Shown here: positions 2,455 through 47,360 of the stretch, in pieces
Layout of the letters: the number at the start of each line of letters is the position of its first letter
How positions within the stretch are numbered: the first letter of the stretch is position 1
Assembly (NCBI GenBank): GCA_963748455.1
Contig: CAVVJD010000022.1
Coordinates: 704,143-768,142, forward strand
From: an uncultured Alphaproteobacteria bacterium
GTDB taxonomy: Bacteria > Pseudomonadota > Alphaproteobacteria > CACIAM-22H2
Direction: 5' to 3'
Length of the DNA: 64,000 nt
Translations under genes and position numbers: made by a program
Notes under the pieces: generated by a model
What the model was told of the DNA's origin: nothing
Database searches by the model: none
Seen by the model: the letters and a program-made list of their open reading frames with translations, nothing else

Positions 2455-4109
2455 CTAGTCGCGATCGACGCGGCGTAGCGCCCATTTGATCGACGTAGTG
2501 TCGCCGGCGAGCGGTGCGGTCAACACGATCTGCTCGCTGCGCCGCGCTTCGCCGCGCCGTCCGAGATAGATACTCTCCGCCAGCTCTATGACCGCGCCAC
2601 TGGCGCGCAGCCGCCACGCAGCACCGGAGCGCGCGCGCAGCAGTGCCGCACCGCCGCTTTGAATCAGCGAGACCTGCATCTCCGGATGCAGATGGAAGCG
2701 GATCGCGATGCGGCCGCGGTGATCGCCGAAAAAGAATCCTCACCGCGAAAATCATCGCCCGACACGGTCAGATACAAGCGGCGGCGATGGGACAGGCCGA
2801 AGCGGCCGAGATAACCGTCATGCCCGGCGGTGAGCCAGACATCGCCGTCCGCCGCCTCGCGCGTGCATTCGGCGTGCAGCGGCCGCGCCGCAAGGCCGCC
2901 GGCGGCGTCGATCTCGACCGAGTTGGTGTCGTCGACGATCGCGGTCGAATGCGCGGCGCTGGCGCGCTGGGCAAGCCGCCAGCCGGCATCGGCGACCGGA
3001 TGGGCGCCGCAATTGACGATGATGCGCTCGCGCGCCTGACTCATCTCGAAGCTGAGGGCACCGGCATGGGCACTGCCATCGAAGCCCGGCGGCGGCGGGG
3101 CGCCGGCATCCATGATGACGCTCGTGGCCCCCGCATCGATGCGCTGGAATCCCATCGCGGCATTCGGGCGGGGCGTGTGCGGCGGCAACCCGGCGCGTTG
3201 GATCACCGCATCGAGCCGCGCGGGCGACCCTTCGCCGGCCCCATTGAACAGGGCCAACCCGCCATCGCCATGGCGCAGCATCTGCAGAACCGGGGTCAAG
3301 CCGGCGATTGCATCCTCCAGGATCACGCCGGGTGCGCGGCCGGCGATCGTCAGCATGTCGCGGATATCGATCAGGATGGCCAGGAGGGACGCAAGCGCGG
3401 CGGGCGAGCGCTCGATATGCCCGCCATCCTGCAGCATCTGGAGGTCGAGTTCGGAATCGAGCGCGTGCAGCGCCTCGTGCAGGTGGCGCCCGTCGGCAGC
3501 GCCGCACAGGATGCCGTAGATCAAGGCGCGAATGGGCAGGAAGCGCTCGGCCCCTTGCGGCCCGCGGCCGAGAACGCGGACCAGATGGCCGAGCTGGCGC
3601 GCGAGCGAGGCCAGGATGCGCGGACCCAGCCCGTCGGCATCGCCGCGCGCCACGAAGCGCGCATGCGCGAGCCAAGCGGCGATGCGCCGCCCGAGCACGG
3701 CGGGCGACCAGGCGATGCGGTGCCAGCGGTCGGCATGGTCGAGCCAATCGGCGATCAGGTCGCGGGCGCGCCGGCGGGCGGCCTCGCCATCGGTCGCGGC
3801 CAGATCGTCGAGCCAGGCGAAACCGTGCAGCTCCGCCAGCGCGGCCTCGTCCAGGTCGGCGGCAAACCAGTCCGGCCGTTCGCCGTGCAGCGTATGGCCG
3901 GCGCACACGAATGTGCCTGAGAGGATGGCGCTGCCGCGCGCCAGATCGCCGGGCCAGGCGTCCGGCGGCAGGCGCTCGAGGCGCTCGGGTGCGCGCGCCG
4001 CGAGCGTGAAACGATAAAGCGGATTGGCGAAATAAAGCTCGGTGAGCGCGGCGCGCCAATCCGGCGCCCGGCGGGCCGGCCCCGTCCCCGACGCGGCGAC
4101 CCGCGCCAT
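2455..4109 (-). CDS. heparinase II/III-like family protein, one frameshift
   Basis: The body comes from ORF 2664..4895, starting at internal Met 263 (MARVAASGTG.., ATG at 4109, 6 nt after the rpe stop). The C-terminus continues in ORF 2455..2679 (..FHLHPEMQVSLIQSGGAALLRARSG..). The frames join at an A5 run near 2731-2735, which looks like one missing base. Confidence 0.7.
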
Positions 4110-43805: not shown

Positions 43806-44591
43806 ATGGACTTAGGTTTGAAGGGCAAGGTTGCGTTGGTGACGGGGGCGAGCCGCGGCATCGGACGGGCGATCGCCATCGAGCTGGCGCGCGAGGGCTG
43901 CGACGTGGCGCTGGCGGCGCGCAGCGCCACGGGCCTGGGCGAAACCGCCGACGTGGTGCGCGAGGAGCTGGGCCGCAAGGCGTTGTGTCACGCCGCCGAT
44001 TTGCGTGAAGACGGTGCGGCGGCGGATTTCGTCGCGGCGGCGCGACGCGAATTCGGGCGCATCGACCTTGTCGTCAACAACGCCGGCGCCACAAAGCGCG
44101 GCGATTTCGCGAGTTTGACGGACGCCGACTTCCACGATGGGTTCGCGCTCAAATTCCACGGCTATGTGCGCCTGGCGCGTGCCGCGTGGCCGGACCTGAA
44201 GACCGCCAAGGGCACGATGATCAACATCATCGGCGCTGGCGGGCGCACAGCCTCGGCCGATTTCACCATCGGCGGTGCCGTCAACGCGGCCCTCTACAAT
44301 TTCACCAAGGCGATGGCGCAGCTCGGTTTGCGCGATGGCGTGCGGGTCGTCGGCATCAATCCCGGACCGATCGAGACCGACCGGCTGAAGGCGCGCATCG
44401 CCGTGATCGCCAAAGACGAGAATGTCGACGAGGCGGAGGCGCGGCGCCGCGAAATGGCCAAGAACGGCGTGATGCGCTTCGGCCTGCCCGAAGAGATCGG
44501 GCAGCTCGTCTGTTTCCTGGCGAGCCCGCTCGCGCGCAACATTCACGGGAGCCTAGTCGACAGCGACAGCGGCGCCACGCGCGCGATCTAG
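43806..44591 (+). CDS. SDR family oxidoreductase
   Basis: MDLGLKGKVALVTGASRGIGRAIA.. carries the TGxxxGIG motif, NNAG is present, and YNFTK gives the YxxxK motif. ATG at 43806 within ORF 43692..44591. Confidence 0.9.
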   Translation: MDLGLKGKVALVTGASRGIGRAIAIELAREGCDVALAARSATGLGETADVVREELGRKALCHAADLREDGAAADFVAAARREFGRIDLVVNNAGATKRGDFASLTDADFHDGFALKFHGYVRLARAAWPDLKTAKGTMINIIGAGGRTASADFTIGGAVNAALYNFTKAMAQLGLRDGVRVVGINPGPIETDRLKARIAVIAKDENVDEAEARRREMAKNGVMRFGLPEEIGQLVCFLASPLARNIHGSLVDSDSGATRAI

Positions 44592-45145
44592 GCCGCGCGC
44601 GGCACCGCTTCGATCAGGCTGAGCGCGTCAGCGGCGGGCACGATGCGTGTGAGATCGAGGCCGGATGCGGCGAACAGGCGCTGAAGATTGGGCGCGCTGC
44701 GCGCGTGCGGCGTGTTGTTGCCTTGTGGCGCGCCGTCGGCCGTGACGAGTGCCTCGATCACTAGCAGCCGCGATGTGTCCTCCATCGCGGCGCGGCAGTT
44801 GCGCAGGATGTGGACGGCGTCGCGGTCGTTCCAGCGGCAGAGGACGCCCTTGAGCAGATAGAGATCGTAGCCGGCGGGAATGCCGGCGAAGAATGCGCCC
44901 GACGCGCTCAACGCAGCGCCGGAAATGGTCGAAGACCATCGGTCCGCACCAATGGCGGAGTCGAGATCGAACAGCAGGGCGCGCAGATGCGGGCGCGCCT
45001 GCAACAGGGCGGCGACCAGCGCCCCTTCCCCGCCGCCAATATCGGCGACCAAGTCCACGGTGGAAAAATCGTAGGCCGCGAGGATGGAGGCCGCCTCCGC
45101 CGCCGCGGCGCGGGACGACGGGGTGGTCGTGATGCGCGTGGACAT
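44588..45145 (-). CDS. short O-methyltransferase-family (Methyltransf_2-like) protein, probably a truncated remnant
   Basis: MSTRITT.. (ATG 45145 in ORF 44588..45238) is 185 aa. It has VADIGGGEGALVAALL (SAM motif I) and ..YLLKGVLCRWNDRDAVHILRNC... The N-terminal dimerisation and substrate region usual for this family is absent. Confidence 0.5.
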   Translation of the reverse strand: MSTRITTTPSSRAAAAEAASILAAYDFSTVDLVADIGGGEGALVAALLQARPHLRALLFDLDSAIGADRWSSTISGAALSASGAFFAGIPAGYDLYLLKGVLCRWNDRDAVHILRNCRAAMEDTSRLLVIEALVTADGAPQGNNTPHARSAPNLQRLFAASGLDLTRIVPAADALSLIEAVPRAA

Positions 45146-45152
45146 GATGTGA

Positions 45153-45362
45153 TTACGGGATGAGCGAGGGATTTGGATGTGCGCAATCCATTGCCGCGTC
45201 GAGTTCAGCGGCGGCAACGGTGGTGAGCAGCACGGCACTCTGGACCCGCGACGGGGAGACGATCCCGGCGGGCGTCGGATCGAGGGCCACGAGGCCCGAT
45301 ACCAGCCCGGCGCAACACAGCGAGATGAGGCTGACCGAGGACCTGTTCGGTATGGAACTCAC
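45153..45362 (-). CDS. small ORF A (69 aa, GTG start), paralog of small ORF B
   Basis: The in-frame GTG at 45362 is preceded by GGAG 7 nt upstream. Product: VSSIPNRSSVSLISLCCAGLVSGLVALDPTPAGIVSPSRVQSAVLLTTVAAAELDAAMDCAHPNPSLIP. It ends 7 nt before the methyltransferase ATG. It is part of track ORF 45153..45452. Confidence 0.4.
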   Translation of the reverse strand: MSSIPNRSSVSLISLCCAGLVSGLVALDPTPAGIVSPSRVQSAVLLTTVAAAELDAAMDCAHPNPSLIP

Positions 45363-45490
45363 GGATGTACTCCGAATAATTGCGTCACCGCCGCCCGTCC
45401 CCCCTTCCCCCAACTCGACCTGGCCCAGGCGGCGGCTGGGGGCGCAGCACATCCCAAAACCGCCTGGAACGGAGTGAGCCCGATCACACC
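45363..45490 (-). promoter_or_regulatory. conserved leader upstream of small ORF A (candidate structured 5' UTR)
   Basis: It shares ordered sequence blocks and its length (128 vs 127 nt) with the leader of small ORF B. It begins with the hairpin GGUGUGA-ucgg-GCUCACU. Confidence 0.35.
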
Positions 45491-45545
45491 TCGGGCCCGG
45501 ATCACAGGGCCTTGACAGGATTGGACAGGCCGTGTCGCCCGCGTC

Positions 45546-45773
45546 TCAGGGCATGTCGAAATCGCGGTCCGCGGCCGGATTGGCGATCTTCGGGGCCGCG
45601 CGATCGCCGATCTCGGACGCGGCCACTGGGGCGACGAGCAGAACGGCGGCTTGCGGCGGGGCCGATGGCAGGAATGCCCGCGGCAGCGGATTAAACACGA
45701 TCAATGTCGACATAAGAGTGGCGCCACCCAGCGCCACGAAACTGAGCGATGACGCAATAGAGCTGGTCTTCAT
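45546..45773 (-). CDS. small ORF B (75 aa), signal/TM-like N-terminus
   Basis: ATG 45773 is preceded by GGGG. Product: MKTSSIASSLSFVALGGATLMSTLIVFNPLPRAFLPSAPPQAAVLLVAPVAASEIGDRAAPKIANPAADRDFDMP. GC3 is high in the C-terminal half. It is part of track ORF 45546..45866. Confidence 0.45.
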   Translation of the reverse strand: MKTSSIASSLSFVALGGATLMSTLIVFNPLPRAFLPSAPPQAAVLLVAPVAASEIGDRAAPKIANPAADRDFDMP

Positions 45774-45900
45774 AATGCACCCCGAATTGCAACGATGCCC
45801 GCCGCCCGTCGTCTCCCTCCGACTCGACCGCCCGGGATGCGGGGTTGGAGATGCAGCACAGCGCAAAACAACCCGGCTGGGCAGTGAGCGGCGTCACACC
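45774..45900 (-). promoter_or_regulatory. conserved leader upstream of small ORF B (candidate structured 5' UTR)
   Basis: The blocks GGUGUGA-cgcc-GCUCACU, GUUUUG, UGUGCUGC, GGUCGAGU, GACGGGCGGCGG and GCAAUUCGGGGUGCAUUAUG occur in the same order as in leader A. Confidence 0.35.
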
Positions 45901-46052
45901 GATGGGCCGACGCCGGGGGATATGAGCCGCCTGGCCCGGCCTTGTTACAGACGCCATCTGGCCCTTGCGAGGGCCGGGCGGGGCCGCTACATTCCGCCCG
46001 CAACCGCCCCGTTCACGGCGTGTTCACATATCGCCTTTATACGGGCGTCGGC

Positions 46053-46127
46053 GCCGCAGTAGCTCAGGGGTAGAGCAGCGCATTCGTAATGCGCGGGTCG
46101 GGGGTTCAATTCCCTCCTGCGGCACCA
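46053..46127 (+). tRNA. tRNA-Thr (anticodon CGU), CCA encoded
   Basis: Manual cloverleaf: acceptor GCCGCAG/CTGCGGC, D arm GCTC-AGGGGTA-GAGC, anticodon arm GCGCA-TTCGTAA-TGCGC (CGT), variable loop GGGTC, T arm GGGGG-TTCAATT-CCCTC, discriminator A, then CCA. Total 75 nt. Confidence 0.95.
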
Positions 46128-46201
46128 TTCCTTCAGGCTGTGTTTAGGCCATTCGACGCGTAAATTTGGGCAGCCGCCTCGGCACGAACGGAACGCATGA
46201 G

Positions 46202-46939
46202 ATGGGCATCCCGGCCTGCATTTTGCCTATCATCAAAGTCGTTCTAGGCAAAATGGCGCCGCCGCCGGGCAAGTCACTGCGCGGGCTGGCGCTGGGCTAT
46301 CCCGATCTGCTGGCGACCCGCAAGAACCTGGTCGATATTTTCGGGCCGGCGATCGAACCCCATCTGACCGGGCGCGATGACAGCGACGCCGTCAATCGCT
46401 GGCACGGGACGAGCGAACTTTTTCCGGAGATCTTCGAGACCGTTGCCTTCTTCGCGGCGCTGGGCGTCACGCTGGACTGCATCGATATCACGGCGGCGCG
46501 CGGCTTCGAGCGCATTGTCGATCTCAACCACGCGCTGCCCGACGACATGGTGGGTGCCTACGATCTGGTGTTCGATTTCGGGACGACGGAACATTGCTTC
46601 AATATCGGCCAGGCGATGGTCAGCTGCGCGTCCGCATTGGCTGCCGGCGGCTGCGTCGTGCATCAGGGCCCGCTCAATATCTTCAATCACGGATTCTATA
46701 ATTTCAACCCGACCTTCTATGCCGATTTTTACAGCCAGAACGGATTCGAGCTGCTGTTCCTCGGCGGGATGACCGCCACGCTGACCGCGCCCAAAATGTT
46801 CGATGTGCCGCCCAATTCGCGCTTCAAGGAAGCGCCCACGGATAGTGGCGTGCTGGCCATCGCGCGGCGCACCAGCGTGCAGCCCATCGTCTGGCCGGTG
46901 CAGCAGAAATACCGCGAGAACCCGACGCTCAAGCGATAG
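46202..46939 (+). CDS. hypothetical protein, possibly methyltransferase-fold
   Basis: ORF 46166..46939 (TTG at 46166; first ATG at 46202). ..DLNHALPDDMVGAYDLVFDFGTTEHCFNIGQAM..GGCVVHQGP.. resembles the post-motif-I part of class I methyltransferases, but there is no clear GxGxG. Confidence 0.45.
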   Translation: MGIPACILPIIKVVLGKMAPPPGKSLRGLALGYPDLLATRKNLVDIFGPAIEPHLTGRDDSDAVNRWHGTSELFPEIFETVAFFAALGVTLDCIDITAARGFERIVDLNHALPDDMVGAYDLVFDFGTTEHCFNIGQAMVSCASALAAGGCVVHQGPLNIFNHGFYNFNPTFYADFYSQNGFELLFLGGMTATLTAPKMFDVPPNSRFKEAPTDSGVLAIARRTSVQPIVWPVQQKYRENPTLKR

Positions 46940-47360
46940 AAGCGGGTGCCGCCGGCGCTATCTCTTCGAAATTGCCGGTGTTCGGGCAGAACTGCTTATA
47001 ACCCGCGTCCACGCCGCCGCGGCGCAGCCAGCGGCTGCAGCGTGACTGGGCGGTGCAGGTCGTGCAGCGCCGCTCGATATCGCGCACCATGTCCGACGTC
47101 GCGCCCGCAAACGCGGTTTCGAGCCCGAGCCTGGCGGTCATGGCGTGGAGAAGGACCGGCGAGCGGGGCGCGTTGTCGATGAGGGTGCGCAGATCCTCGC
47201 GGCTGCAGCCGATATCGGCGAGGACGCGCGCGATATCGCGGTCATCCAGCCGCGCGAATTCCCTCGCGAGGCGCCGTCGCTCGGCCGCATCGCGCCTATA
47301 AGACCCGACGCTGGCGGCCAGGCCGCGCATGCGCCGCATCAGAGAGATCGTCCCGCACAT
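46929..47360 (-). CDS. DUF1127-like / DUF6455-like small protein
   Basis: ORF 46929..47402. ..LAREFARLDDRDIARVLADIGCSREDL is a DUF1127-type motif. ..RRCTTCTAQSRCSRWL..FCPN is a Cys pattern as in DUF6455. The start is ambiguous (47402, 47360 or 47339). Confidence 0.55.
   Translation of the reverse strand: MCGTISLMRRMRGLAASVGSYRRDAAERRRLAREFARLDDRDIARVLADIGCSREDLRTLIDNAPRSPVLLHAMTARLGLETAFAGATSDMVRDIERRCTTCTAQSRCSRWLRRGGVDAGYKQFCPNTGNFEEIAPAAPASIA

Follow-up and report, generated by a model that had tools for sequence, protein, structure and literature searches.

A lineage-restricted, duplicated expression module of leader and small ORF upstream of an O-methyltransferase-like gene

Background

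Several described systems resemble parts of the locus considered here. Leaders that sequester the Shine-Dalgarno (SD) box are described in Alphaproteobacteria; these include the SAM-II and SAM-V riboswitches and ROSE-type thermometers. At the DNA level, class II CRP/FNR-dependent promoters contain the palindrome TGTGA-N6-TCACA, which is the CRP consensus, centred near position -41.5. Type I toxin-antitoxin loci, such as ldr, ibs/sib and zorO-orzO, are typically tandemly amplified. Further points of reference are upstream small ORFs translationally coupled to the following gene, and class I SAM-dependent O-methyltransferases of the PF00891 family (PDB 6c5b; DtpM, 8rdm; CalO6, 4z2y). Here we analyse an alphaproteobacterial locus in which two small ORFs, each with its own leader, precede a short O-methyltransferase-like (OMT-like) gene. 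We interpret it as a lineage-restricted, duplicated expression module.

Locus and relatives

The window, that is, the whole 64 kb stretch of DNA analysed, contains two paralogous units in tandem, B and A, both on the minus strand and each consisting of a leader and a small ORF. The features of the locus are as follows.

46053..46127, plus strand: tRNA-Thr(CGT), oriented away from the units and conserved as an anchor of the locus (ARAGORN; Rfam tRNA, 69.6 bits)
45953..46052, no strand assigned: near-invariant 100-nt block from the tRNA 5' end to unit B, almost identical across all loci in the alignment
45774..45900, minus strand: leader B, 127 nt counted from GGTGTGA
45546..45773, minus strand: ORF B, ATG start, 75 aa
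45494..45511, minus strand: hairpin GGCCC-TGTGATCC-GGGCC in the B-A spacer, just upstream of leader A
45363..45490, minus strand: leader A, 128 nt counted from GGTGTGA
45153..45362, minus strand: ORF A, GTG start, 69 aa
44588..45145, minus strand: short OMT-like gene with PF00891 match, 185 aa, limited to the Rossmann domain

The ORF coordinates and both leader lengths in the first-pass annotation of this DNA were correct, as was the distance of 7 nt between the TAA codon of ORF A and the OMT-like ATG (45145), and every one of the ordered blocks that it listed as common to the two leaders was found. It had placed the units between tRNA-Thr and a methyltransferase gene; the position is right, but the tRNA gene lies on the plus strand and hence is divergent from the units. 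The same tRNA-Thr(CGT) is present in related loci L001-L007. The suggestion that B, A and the methyltransferase gene may be one unit is borne out in the related loci, where they recur as a syntenic unit. The conserved neighbourhood includes genes for SDR, DUF423, SnoaL and DUF6455 proteins and for a 245-aa protein without assignment.

The 100-nt block next to the tRNA gene, with a hairpin GGCCCTCGCAAGGGCC at 45975-45960, presumably houses the tRNA promoter and possibly also the divergent promoter of the minus-strand operon. Leader B contains the box TGTGACGCCGCTCAC (45898-45884), TGTGCTGC (45860-45853) and GACGGGCGGCGG (45810-45799); its SD box is GGGG (45783-45780), where the orthologues have GGAG. 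The 5' part of leader A contains the box TGTGATCGGGCTCAC (45488-45474), the candidate anti-SD block ATGTGCTGCG (45452-45443) and the C-rich strand GCCGCCGCC (45436-45428), and its 3' part contains the G-rich strand GACGGGCGGCGG (45399-45388) and the SD box GGAG (45373-45370). The stem of the spacer hairpin varies in sequence between orthologues with complementarity retained (GCCTTG/CAAGGC in L002, GGCTC/GGGCC in L003).

Homologous pairs of leader and small ORF, which the first-pass annotation proposed to look for in other genomes, do exist, but only on a handful of metagenome contigs, some with both units and some with one. The family forms four clusters among 1.84 billion representatives. Four orthologous loci retain both units. 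The single unit of L005 belongs to the A lineage. In L007 the leader is kept and only 31 codons of the ORF are left, in an in-frame fusion with the OMT-like gene; in L008 the leader is again kept, the ORF has 42 codons and has lost the hydrophobic helix, and its stop codon overlaps the OMT-like ATG. L010 is a family member with neither the leader nor the OMT-like gene. Four contigs of the JGI sample 3300078620 carry OMT-like genes of 52-72% identity, preceded by ORFs of 68-70 aa. Patterns for the A-type and DRDFD-type peptides matched nothing in the 185,579 species-representative genomes of GTDB, nor did the peptide pattern in the JGI metagenome collection or tblastn in the plasmid collection. 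The leader pattern GGGGGAAGGGG-N1-6-GGGCGGCGGT returned 45 stretches from the JGI metagenome collection, all of them chance matches, and an nhmmer search with the leader profile revealed no further copies in the window or in any of the loci, L009 and L010 included.

Small ORFs and the O-methyltransferase-like gene

The two peptides are indeed paralogous, as proposed at first pass (39% identity over 59 residues, E = 4e-07). In the peptide of ORF B, a hydrophobic helix near the N-terminus (residues ~9-27) is followed by a proline-rich tail and the C-terminal motif ADRDFDMP, which we term ancestral; the AF2 model of this peptide shows one helix (residues 3-27) at low confidence (pLDDT 59). The peptide of ORF A has the same helix and a Cys-Cys pair, and the DRDFDMP tail is exchanged for one ending in SLIP. 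The two units separated long ago, since B retains this motif and the entire A lineage has lost it, the single-unit locus L005 and the remnant A-type ORF in L007 among them. Across the family, peptides of 64-76 aa combine a transmembrane-like conserved N-terminus (KD 1.8-2.3) with a conserved non-hydrophobic tail.

Orthologues of ORF B are P0002-P0005, and a profile search also finds P0037-P0039; orthologues of ORF A are P0032-P0036. P0032-P0039 are homologues of the small ORFs found as proteins. Differences at the three codon positions number 44/18/98 in ORF A and 61/46/104 in ORF B. The pN/pS ratio is lowest in the sense frame (0.21 for ORF A, 0.39 for ORF B), with the antisense shadow frame close behind (0.28 and 0.50). 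An SD box, GGAG or, in unit B of the window, GGGG, lies 6-7 nt ahead of every small-ORF start, and the GTG start of ORF A is replaced by TTG in L003 and L005 with the start retained. By their third-position bias, pN/pS of 0.2-0.4, conserved SD box and start, and protein homologues, both ORFs look coding, and on sequence they are members of a very small family of predicted one-helix peptides that has no annotation. No matches to the peptides were found in Pfam, NCBIfam or PADLOC. The possibility that the units are a decayed N-terminal domain of an O-methyltransferase was rejected, as hhalign against the N-terminal domain of L009 gave a probability of 0.1%.

The reading of the downstream gene as a short O-methyltransferase holds in part. 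The match to PF00891 (Methyltransf_2) has E = 7e-23 and scores 81.5 bits, well over the cut-off of 22.3; it covers only positions 51-175 of the 210 in the profile, and the catalytic histidine and other core segments are missing. The LHDW motif is replaced by LCRWND in the clade of the window, IRRWND in L007 and L008, and VSQWHD in P0013-P0016. In alignments with PDB entries and within the family, Cys, Arg or Ser takes the place of the catalytic histidine and the ERT segment is deleted. The protein starts at the Rossmann domain, the dimerisation domain PF08100 being absent from its N-terminus. These alignments show a protein degenerate as a methyltransferase; its gene evolves with dN/dS of about 0.3. 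In all loci the stop codon of the small ORF is 3-15 nt from the OMT-like ATG or overlaps it. As the OMT-like gene of the window has no SD box ahead of its ATG and starts 7 nt past the stop codon of ORF A, it is probably translationally coupled to the small ORF.

Leader sequences

By eye, the leader blocks had seemed at least as conserved as the peptides, and the numbers agree: leaders A and B are 62.5% identical, compared with 55% for the ORFs overall and 43% at third codon positions, at dS ~1.0 between ORFs A and B. The four orthologous B-type leaders share 77-87% identity; leader A shares 89-93% identity with its A-type counterparts in L001, L002, L003 and L005 and 75-80% with those in L007 and L008. 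The best conserved part is the 3' 80 nt. Divergence of leader A is lower than that of 4-fold degenerate sites of the OMT-like gene: 0.071 against 0.296 for L005 (p = 1e-5), 0.198 against 0.398 for L007, and 0.246 against 0.397 for L008. This slower evolution shows that the leader is under purifying selection. The claim that the duplication is not neutral is upheld by the same comparison. In L007 and L008 the leader outlasts the small ORF. Coding by the leader was considered and rejected, since 1-nt indels in L001 and L002 interrupt the in-frame upstream extension that the window shows, and A and B do not agree in frame.

The first block had been described as a hairpin with a conserved stem. 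A perfect 4-bp stem can be formed, but the block is better read as TGTGA-N6-TCAC, which is equally a CRP-type palindrome. In the 64 kb the exact pattern occurs only in the two leaders, with 0.26 occurrences expected. The box is kept in 10 of 11 leaders, its final base being T or G, not A. Neither inspection nor scanning revealed a sigma-54, ECF or sigma-70 promoter within the leader.

No known RNA family matches the leader, in agreement with the first-pass annotation. With Rfam 15, cmscan at E <= 10 over positions 44000-47000 of the window yielded only tRNA and chance miRNA matches, and a scan of the whole window at gathering thresholds only tRNA. Among L002, L003, L007 and L008, scanned at E <= 5, there was one sub-threshold match, to ivy-DE in L007 (24.8 against 41.4 bits, E = 0.84). 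The suggestion of an RNA element common to both copies fared worse: covariation over all 11 leaders was 0.104, not above that of shuffled alignments (0.121), with two pairs changed on both sides. The proposed two-sided change between CCCCC/GGGGG and UCUCC/GGAGG holds in only two of the four B orthologues. The MFE z-scores (-0.28, 0.46, -2.08 and 1.24) are unremarkable. A G-quadruplex in the G-rich block was rejected, the tracts being incompatible with a three-tier quadruplex.

For the seven leaders of the A lineage, RNAalifold predicts a 5' hairpin, a helix between the anti-SD and SD regions, and a GC-rich helix of 11-13 bp. In this fold 95.9% of cells are paired, compared with 39-56% when the partners are slid by 1-3 columns. 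Its covariation (0.122, against 0.084 for shuffles, with none of 500 reaching it) is a weak signal, as it comes from seven related sequences and the structure was derived from the same ones. Both partners are exchanged in two pairs next to the box; most of the one-sided changes in the two long helices are compatible with G-U pairing. The anti-SD helix is part of the MFE structure in four of the seven leaders; in three A-type leaders it contains a U-C mismatch. In B-type leaders it would cost 15-29 kcal/mol, and L001B has two uncompensated changes in the anti-SD block; these leaders are not predicted to adopt the A-type fold, and RNAalifold favours another long-range pairing. Thus the modelling gives a coherent RNA structure only in the A lineage, with folds that would differ between A and B. 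An RNA mechanism for the leader is plausible but unproven.

Possible mechanisms

The explanation we prefer, with a probability of about 0.45 for the whole, is that the leader, a gene for a small membrane protein and the OMT-like gene constitute one operon, in which the lineage of the window has the module of leader and small gene twice, B and then A. Each leader would be transcribed as a constrained 5' or intercistronic mRNA leader setting the translation rate of its small ORF. The OMT-like gene would be expressed via translational coupling, since it has no SD box and starts at or just past the small-ORF stop. In the A lineage the leader would most likely act by occlusion of the ribosome-binding site in RNA: AUGUGCUGCG would pair with CGGAGUACAU, which comprises the SD box and the spacer, UGUGCUGCG being the block set against the SD-proximal strand in the model. 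This occluding helix would close a domain around the 11-12-bp helix GCCGCCGCC/GGCGGCGG, and a separate 5' hairpin would carry the TGTGA...TCAC box. A stronger version, which we consider doubtful, is that the leader is a new lineage-restricted SD-occluding RNA switch, possibly pseudoknotted, over a hitherto undescribed two-part system of a DRDFDMP-tailed one-helix membrane peptide and a non-catalytic SAM-binding OMT-derived protein, with B and A as two differently folded versions of it.

The conserved blocks could instead serve mainly for control at the DNA level. In this reading a regulator of the CRP/FNR superfamily, or another dimeric one, would use the box as its operator or activator site, core promoter elements and a normal 5' UTR would come next, and every unit would have its own regulated promoter, duplicated with it. 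The box fits the CRP consensus at nine of ten specified positions, and it has invariant arms (save for one uncompensated change in L001B) around a variable 6-nt centre, as expected of a protein-binding site. Its confinement to the two leaders in 64 kb, the second similar palindrome ~40 nt upstream in L007 and L008, and the spacing from box to TTT and from box to TGTGCTGC, constant within 1 nt, are in line with such a role, as is the fact that the A and B leaders share blocks and not a predicted fold. Moreover, taking TGTGCT as a -10 hexamer would put the centre of the box at -41.5 (A) or -42.5 (B), a class II geometry. However, TGTGCT lacks the key A at the second position of the -10 hexamer and the scan found no sigma-70-like promoter on the minus strand. 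Between L007 and L008 the pairs next to the box turn from G-C to C-G, a two-sided change more readily explained by a hairpin than by a recognition site, and the best conserved 3' 80 nt would be transcribed UTR, still in need of an explanation at the RNA level. No CRP-family gene was found among ten ORFs of the window in a non-exhaustive scan. On balance we regard control at the DNA level as unlikely. The same two-sided changes, confined as they are to the helices flanking the box, also agree with an intrinsic terminator or attenuator, in which the 5' hairpin of box and flanking pairs followed by the U-tract (GUUUUG or GAUUUG) would give a short RNA, and regulated read-through the mRNA. In the A lineage, some 2-3 nt separate the end of the extended hairpin (columns 5-39) from the invariant TTT block, and the hairpin of L007 is very stable. 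On the other hand, the U-tract has only 3-4 U before G or C, the terminator scan was negative at this site, the hairpins of A and B in the window are weak (U-U mismatch, 4-bp core), and the ~80 nt of leader beyond the U-tract are even better conserved, which is not how a classical attenuator is arranged; we consider this explanation improbable.

Other alternatives start from the peptides. Units B and A may be seen as tandem RiPP-like precursors, with the adjacent methyltransferase as tailoring enzyme and the upstream regions as mere duplicated ribosome-binding and intergenic sequence. Tandem paralogous small ORFs do adjoin a PF00891 gene, and the peptides have a conserved N-terminal region and a C-terminus that is variable (A) or sharply conserved and acidic (ADRDFDMP; B, P0037-P0039). 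This reading is nevertheless very improbable: the conserved N-terminus is a transmembrane-like helix, the OMT-like protein has C, R or S for the catalytic histidine and is without both the D..ML..GGxERT segment and the N-terminal domain that binds substrate, and the conserved neighbourhood contains no other RiPP enzymes, protease or transporter. Besides, L007 and L008 keep the leader and the OMT-like gene with a decayed peptide, and the higher conservation of the leaders than of the ORFs would be left unexplained. Small peptides with one predicted transmembrane helix, behind a long conserved 5' leader with a possible anti-SD and in a tandemly duplicated module, also bring to mind type I toxin-antitoxin modules, in which a toxic hydrophobic peptide is encoded behind a structured 5' UTR that hides the SD box and is targeted by an antisense sRNA. 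On the plus strand, one sigma-70-like promoter match (45749-45776) does read antisense into leader B, but it is not conserved in L003B or in the A-type leaders, the scan found no plus-strand terminator, and PADLOC gave no match. Given also the size of the peptides (64-76 aa) with their conserved non-hydrophobic tail, and the vertical inheritance of the module at one syntenic site, with probable translational coupling to a conserved downstream gene, there is very little to recommend a toxin-antitoxin function. Finally, the extreme narrowness of the family and the existence of only two copies might reflect a recent functionless duplication with residual leader similarity. The rate comparisons already speak against this, since the leaders remain 62.5% identical despite dS ~1.0 and 43% identity at third positions; moreover, both units are kept in four orthologous loci at pN/pS of 0.2-0.4, and B retains the ancestral C-terminal motif absent across the A lineage. 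We therefore consider it the least credible of all.

If the leader is an RNA switch, as the reading with an occluded ribosome-binding site would have it, it would represent an unclassified cis-regulator and a natural pair of diverged paralogs for studying evolution after duplication. Together with the small peptide, the degenerate OMT-like protein would exemplify an enzyme fold repurposed as the non-catalytic partner of a membrane micro-protein. As the family is extremely narrow, its general impact is limited, and its practical value lies mainly in offering a well-delimited test case for the annotation of small proteins and leaders.

Comparison with known systems

The closest parallels to the proposed mechanism are the SD-sequestering leaders of Alphaproteobacteria. 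They too occupy ~100-130 nt directly before the start codon and have an upstream conserved block complementary to the SD region; the GC-rich helix could make an H-type pseudoknot from the CCCCC and GGGGG runs, and the downstream gene here is SAM-methyltransferase-like. In contrast to them, the leaders described here have no Rfam match even at E <= 10, and the two paralogous leaders have no common fold or significant covariation. Class II CRP/FNR promoters share with the locus the TGTGA-N6-TCAC(T/G) pattern with invariant arms, a variable centre and a fixed distance to the next blocks; here, however, there is no recognisable -10 element, and the flanking positions covary in the manner of a hairpin.

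As in translationally coupled upstream small ORFs, the small ORF everywhere ends 3-15 nt before the OMT-like ATG or overlaps it, and it stays open with the same endpoint despite peptide decay (L008) or is fused to the gene (L007). Unlike them, the ORF of most loci also encodes a selected peptide; because of this purifying selection, it is not merely a coupling device. With ldr, ibs/sib and zorO-orzO the locus has in common tandem modules, a long conserved 5' UTR and a small one-helix membrane peptide. It differs from them in having no antisense RNA signals, in its longer peptides with a conserved hydrophilic tail, and in the probable coupling of the module to a downstream gene and its inheritance at one syntenic site.

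The sequence of the Rossmann domain aligns to residues ~160-340 of the PF00891 enzymes, with both the DxGGGxG motif and the acidic residue that follows strand 2 intact. However, the ~150-aa N-terminal dimerisation and substrate domain of these enzymes is absent, the histidine of L-H-D-W is Cys, Arg or Ser, GDFF reads GAFF, and ~19 residues including D..ML..GGxERT are deleted.

Organisation of the locus

Two tandem minus-strand units, B and A, each formed by a leader and a small ORF, lie between a tRNA gene and a gene for an O-methyltransferase-like (OMT-like) protein. The sequence comparisons below point to a lineage-restricted expression module, combining a leader with a small membrane protein and a degenerate OMT-like protein that is probably coupled to it. 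The module is tandemly duplicated in the window's clade.

Features of the locus
46053-46127, plus strand: tRNA-Thr(CGT), divergent from units B and A
46052-45953, read on the minus strand: 100-nt block between tRNA and unit B, ending in hairpin GGCCCTCGCAAGGGCC
45900-45774, minus: leader B, 127 nt
45773-45546, minus: ORF B, 75 aa, ATG start
55-nt spacer between B and A, with a small hairpin inside
45490-45363, minus: leader A, 128 nt
45362-45153, minus: ORF A, 69 aa, GTG start
45145-44588, minus: OMT-like ORF, 185 aa, 7 nt past ORF A; PF00891 at profile positions 51-175 of 210

The units can be aligned end to end, and the two peptides share 39% of 59 aligned residues (E = 4e-07). The tandem paralogy described in the first-pass annotation is real; all leader blocks listed there were found, and the leaders are exactly 127 and 128 nt long. 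The flanking tRNA-Thr gene is also present, but it is transcribed divergently. The OMT-like ORF and the SDR gene are convergent and overlap by 4 nt.

The tRNA-proximal block of about 100 nt (45953-46052) is near-invariant in the related metagenome loci L001-L008, though divergence at OMT 4-fold sites reaches 0.40. Within the block are hairpin GGCCCTCGCAAGGGCC and a TATAAA/TTTATA element adjoining the tRNA 5' end; divergent promoters may overlap here, e.g. minus-strand GTGAAC-N17-(G)AATGT, picked by eye only. The spacer hairpin (45494-45511), just 5' of leader A, retains pairing while its sequence differs among orthologues (stems GGCCC/GGGCC, GCCTTG/CAAGGC, GGCTC/GGGCC); the L001 spacer is unrelated. 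As an intercistronic stem-loop it could serve in processing or stabilisation. The conserved divergent neighbour (46166-46939, plus strand; 245-257 aa) had no match in NCBIfam or PDB and only weak similarity to Methyltransf_12 (E = 0.025). Given this similarity and its synteny in L002, L003, L007 and the P0014 contig, the locus has a second methyltransferase-like gene at its flank.

Distribution

Among 5.8 billion proteins, peptide B retrieved only five 90%-identity clusters, and the A profile likewise five. When 1.84 billion representatives were scanned in full with HMMER, the joint A+B profile yielded four: one of A type, one of B type (P0037), and two shorter ones, P0038 (68 aa) and P0039 (64 aa), in which an A-like ALC(C) helix is joined to a B-like C-terminus ...P-x-ADRDFDMP. 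No relatives were found in 185,579 species-representative genomes, in the JGI metagenome collection or in plasmids. The nearest DNA matches of the flanking genes are Azospirillum plasmids (74-78% identity), which fits an alphaproteobacterium of high GC content (66%). Related contigs, gathered via the peptides and via the OMT-like protein, form a graded series.

Related loci, with OMT-like identity to the window
L001-L004: about 88-91% (L001, L003; L002 and L004 incomplete); order tRNA, B, A, OMT-like gene, SDR
L005/L006: 81%; one A-type unit straight after the conserved tRNA-proximal block
L007: 69%; leader kept, ORF of 31 codons, stop lost, in-frame fusion to the OMT-like gene
L008: 64%; leader kept, 42-codon ORF with Arg/Pro replacing the hydrophobic helix, stop overlapping the OMT ATG
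P0009, P0013 and P0014 contigs: 72-52%; 68-70-aa ORF with its stop 3-4 nt ahead of the gene
L009: 43%; no leader; OMT a split full-length enzyme
L010: no OMT-like gene, no leader; P0039 15 nt past an unrelated gene

In L009 (4547-5567) the 43% identical homologue occupies two ORFs with an 11-nt overlap, of 154 aa (weak PF08100 dimerisation match) and 188 aa (PF00891); either a full-length OMT has been split or frameshifted here, or the sequence contains an error. In L010 (1-1210) the gene preceding P0039 resembles, by eye, part of a fatty-acid-oxidation enzyme (predicted product). The 3' third of this contig is AT-rich, and the assembly may be chimeric.

Small proteins

Differences between orthologues at codon positions 1/2/3 number 44/18/98 in ORF A and 61/46/104 in ORF B, and among six frames pN/pS is lowest in the sense frame (0.21 and 0.39, respectively). 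GGAG precedes each start by 6-7 nt, and the GTG start of ORF A is replaced by TTG, likewise a start codon, in orthologues. A single hydrophobic stretch spans residues ~9-27 of both peptides (Kyte-Doolittle 1.8-2.3 over 19 residues). From these features we conclude that ORFs A and B encode real small proteins of an unannotated family, probably membrane-anchored; AlphaFold predicts, with low confidence, a single helix (residues 3-27) and a disordered tail.

Long antisense ORFs on the plus strand (45160-45477 and 45532-46062) overlap ORF A, ORF B and leader B. Their pN/pS, 0.28 (A) and 0.50 (B), is near that of the sense frame and slightly worse, and they use the same third codon positions. They were rejected as genes, being typical high-GC artefacts.

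Peptide B is 48-59% identical to P0038/P0039 and 29-41% identical to A. The A/B split is old (dS about 1.0), since B is nearer to these proteins and keeps the ancestral tail lost throughout the A lineage, to which single-unit L005 and L007, with its A-type ORF remnant, also belong. Unit B was lost, or never gained, in single-unit lineages.

OMT-like gene

The short gene was initially described as O-methyltransferase-like. Its 185-aa product matches PF00891 and aligns with residues ~160-340, the Rossmann half, of solved enzymes of that family. Throughout the clade associated with the small ORFs (P0006-P0017) the N-terminal dimerisation/substrate domain, the catalytic His (LHDW replaced by LCRW, IRRW or VSQW), the Asp of GDFF and a ~19-residue segment with D..ML..GGxERT are lost; some members also lack one Gly of DxGGGxG. 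More distant homologues, in contrast, keep all these features. Despite the losses, the gene is under purifying selection (dN/dS about 0.3), and its product is a candidate pseudo-enzyme, with a SAM fold but no catalysis.

The OMT-like gene has no Shine-Dalgarno (SD) box, and in every locus it starts 3-15 nt past the small-ORF stop or overlaps it. From this geometry, it is likely to be expressed by translational coupling.

Selection on the leader

Divergence of leader A was set against that of OMT 4-fold sites for each orthologue (Fisher test).

Divergence of leader A and of OMT 4-fold sites
L001: 0.103 and 0.107, p 1.0 (too close to tell)
L003: 0.071 and 0.161, p 0.04
L005: 0.071 and 0.296, p 1e-5
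L007: 0.198 and 0.398, p 0.003
L008: 0.246 and 0.397, p 0.03

Between the paralogs, leaders are 62.5% identical; for the ORFs the value is 55% over all positions and 43% at third ones. The leader is non-coding, as it contains one-nucleotide indels and the reading frames of A and B disagree. It persists in L007 and L008, where the peptide has decayed; its function is thus tied to operon expression, not to peptide sequence. These divergence rates demonstrate selection on the leader. The earlier suggestion of a selected RNA element, rather than a recent neutral duplication, holds as to selection; a role as RNA is plausible.

Mode of action of the leader

The leader had at first not been recognised as any known family, and Rfam, searched with permissive thresholds, likewise gave no matching one. 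The sub-threshold similarity of L007 3313-3415 to ivy-DE RNA (24.8 bits, gathering score 41.4, E = 0.84) is treated as chance, as no other leader matches.

For all 11 distinct leaders RNAalifold gives a hairpin at the first block (the box), pairing of (A)UGUGCUGCG with CGGAGU(A)CAU (SD and spacer), and CCCCC/GGGGG. Both sides changed in two pairs, and covariation, at 0.104, does not exceed that of shuffles (0.121); MFE z-scores are -0.28, 0.46, -2.08 and 1.24. The two-sided change noticed at first, CCCCC/GGGGG to UCUCC/GGAGG, occurs in two of four B orthologues and fails in the others. For the seven A-lineage leaders a coherent predicted fold emerges, an extended 5' hairpin with the box and an anti-SD/SD helix enclosing an 11-13-bp helix, GCCGCCGCCYG/CGGGCGGCGGU. 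Here 95.9% of cells pair, vs 39-56% in slid controls, and two pairs beside the box changed on both sides. One-sided changes in the long helices are mostly G-U compatible, a property of the sense strand. The covariation score exceeds all 500 shuffles, on a structure derived from the same few, related sequences, so support for this fold is suggestive only. B-type leaders do not adopt it: a forced anti-SD helix costs 15-29 kcal/mol, and the consensus pairs the box region with a G-rich block instead. Hence what can be demonstrated for the blocks that A and B share is conservation of sequence, and not of structure.

We rank first, at a probability of roughly 0.45, a leader that would act at the RNA level by occluding the SD box; an RNA switch is plausible. 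The main competitor is a promoter or operator, with the first block bound by protein as DNA. The box is exactly TGTGA-N6-TCAC, a CRP-type palindrome whose arms are invariant and whose centre varies, found within the 64 kb only at both leaders and at fixed spacing to the TTT and TGTGCTGC blocks. A second, imperfect palindrome lies ~40 nt upstream of it in L007 (TGTGAATTTGTGTCAC, ~3295-3312) and L008 (GTGTCAAATCGCGTCAC, ~150-167), and is absent from the window. However, no promoter hexamers are recognisable, the leader's best-conserved part is the 3' 80 nt beside the SD box, and positions flanking the box covary. These points argue against a purely DNA role, and we therefore place it second, as a rather unlikely but live alternative. 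Below both stand the attenuator, RiPP, type I TA-like and neutral readings.

Very narrow in distribution, the regulatory leader and the small-protein family are additions to known kinds.
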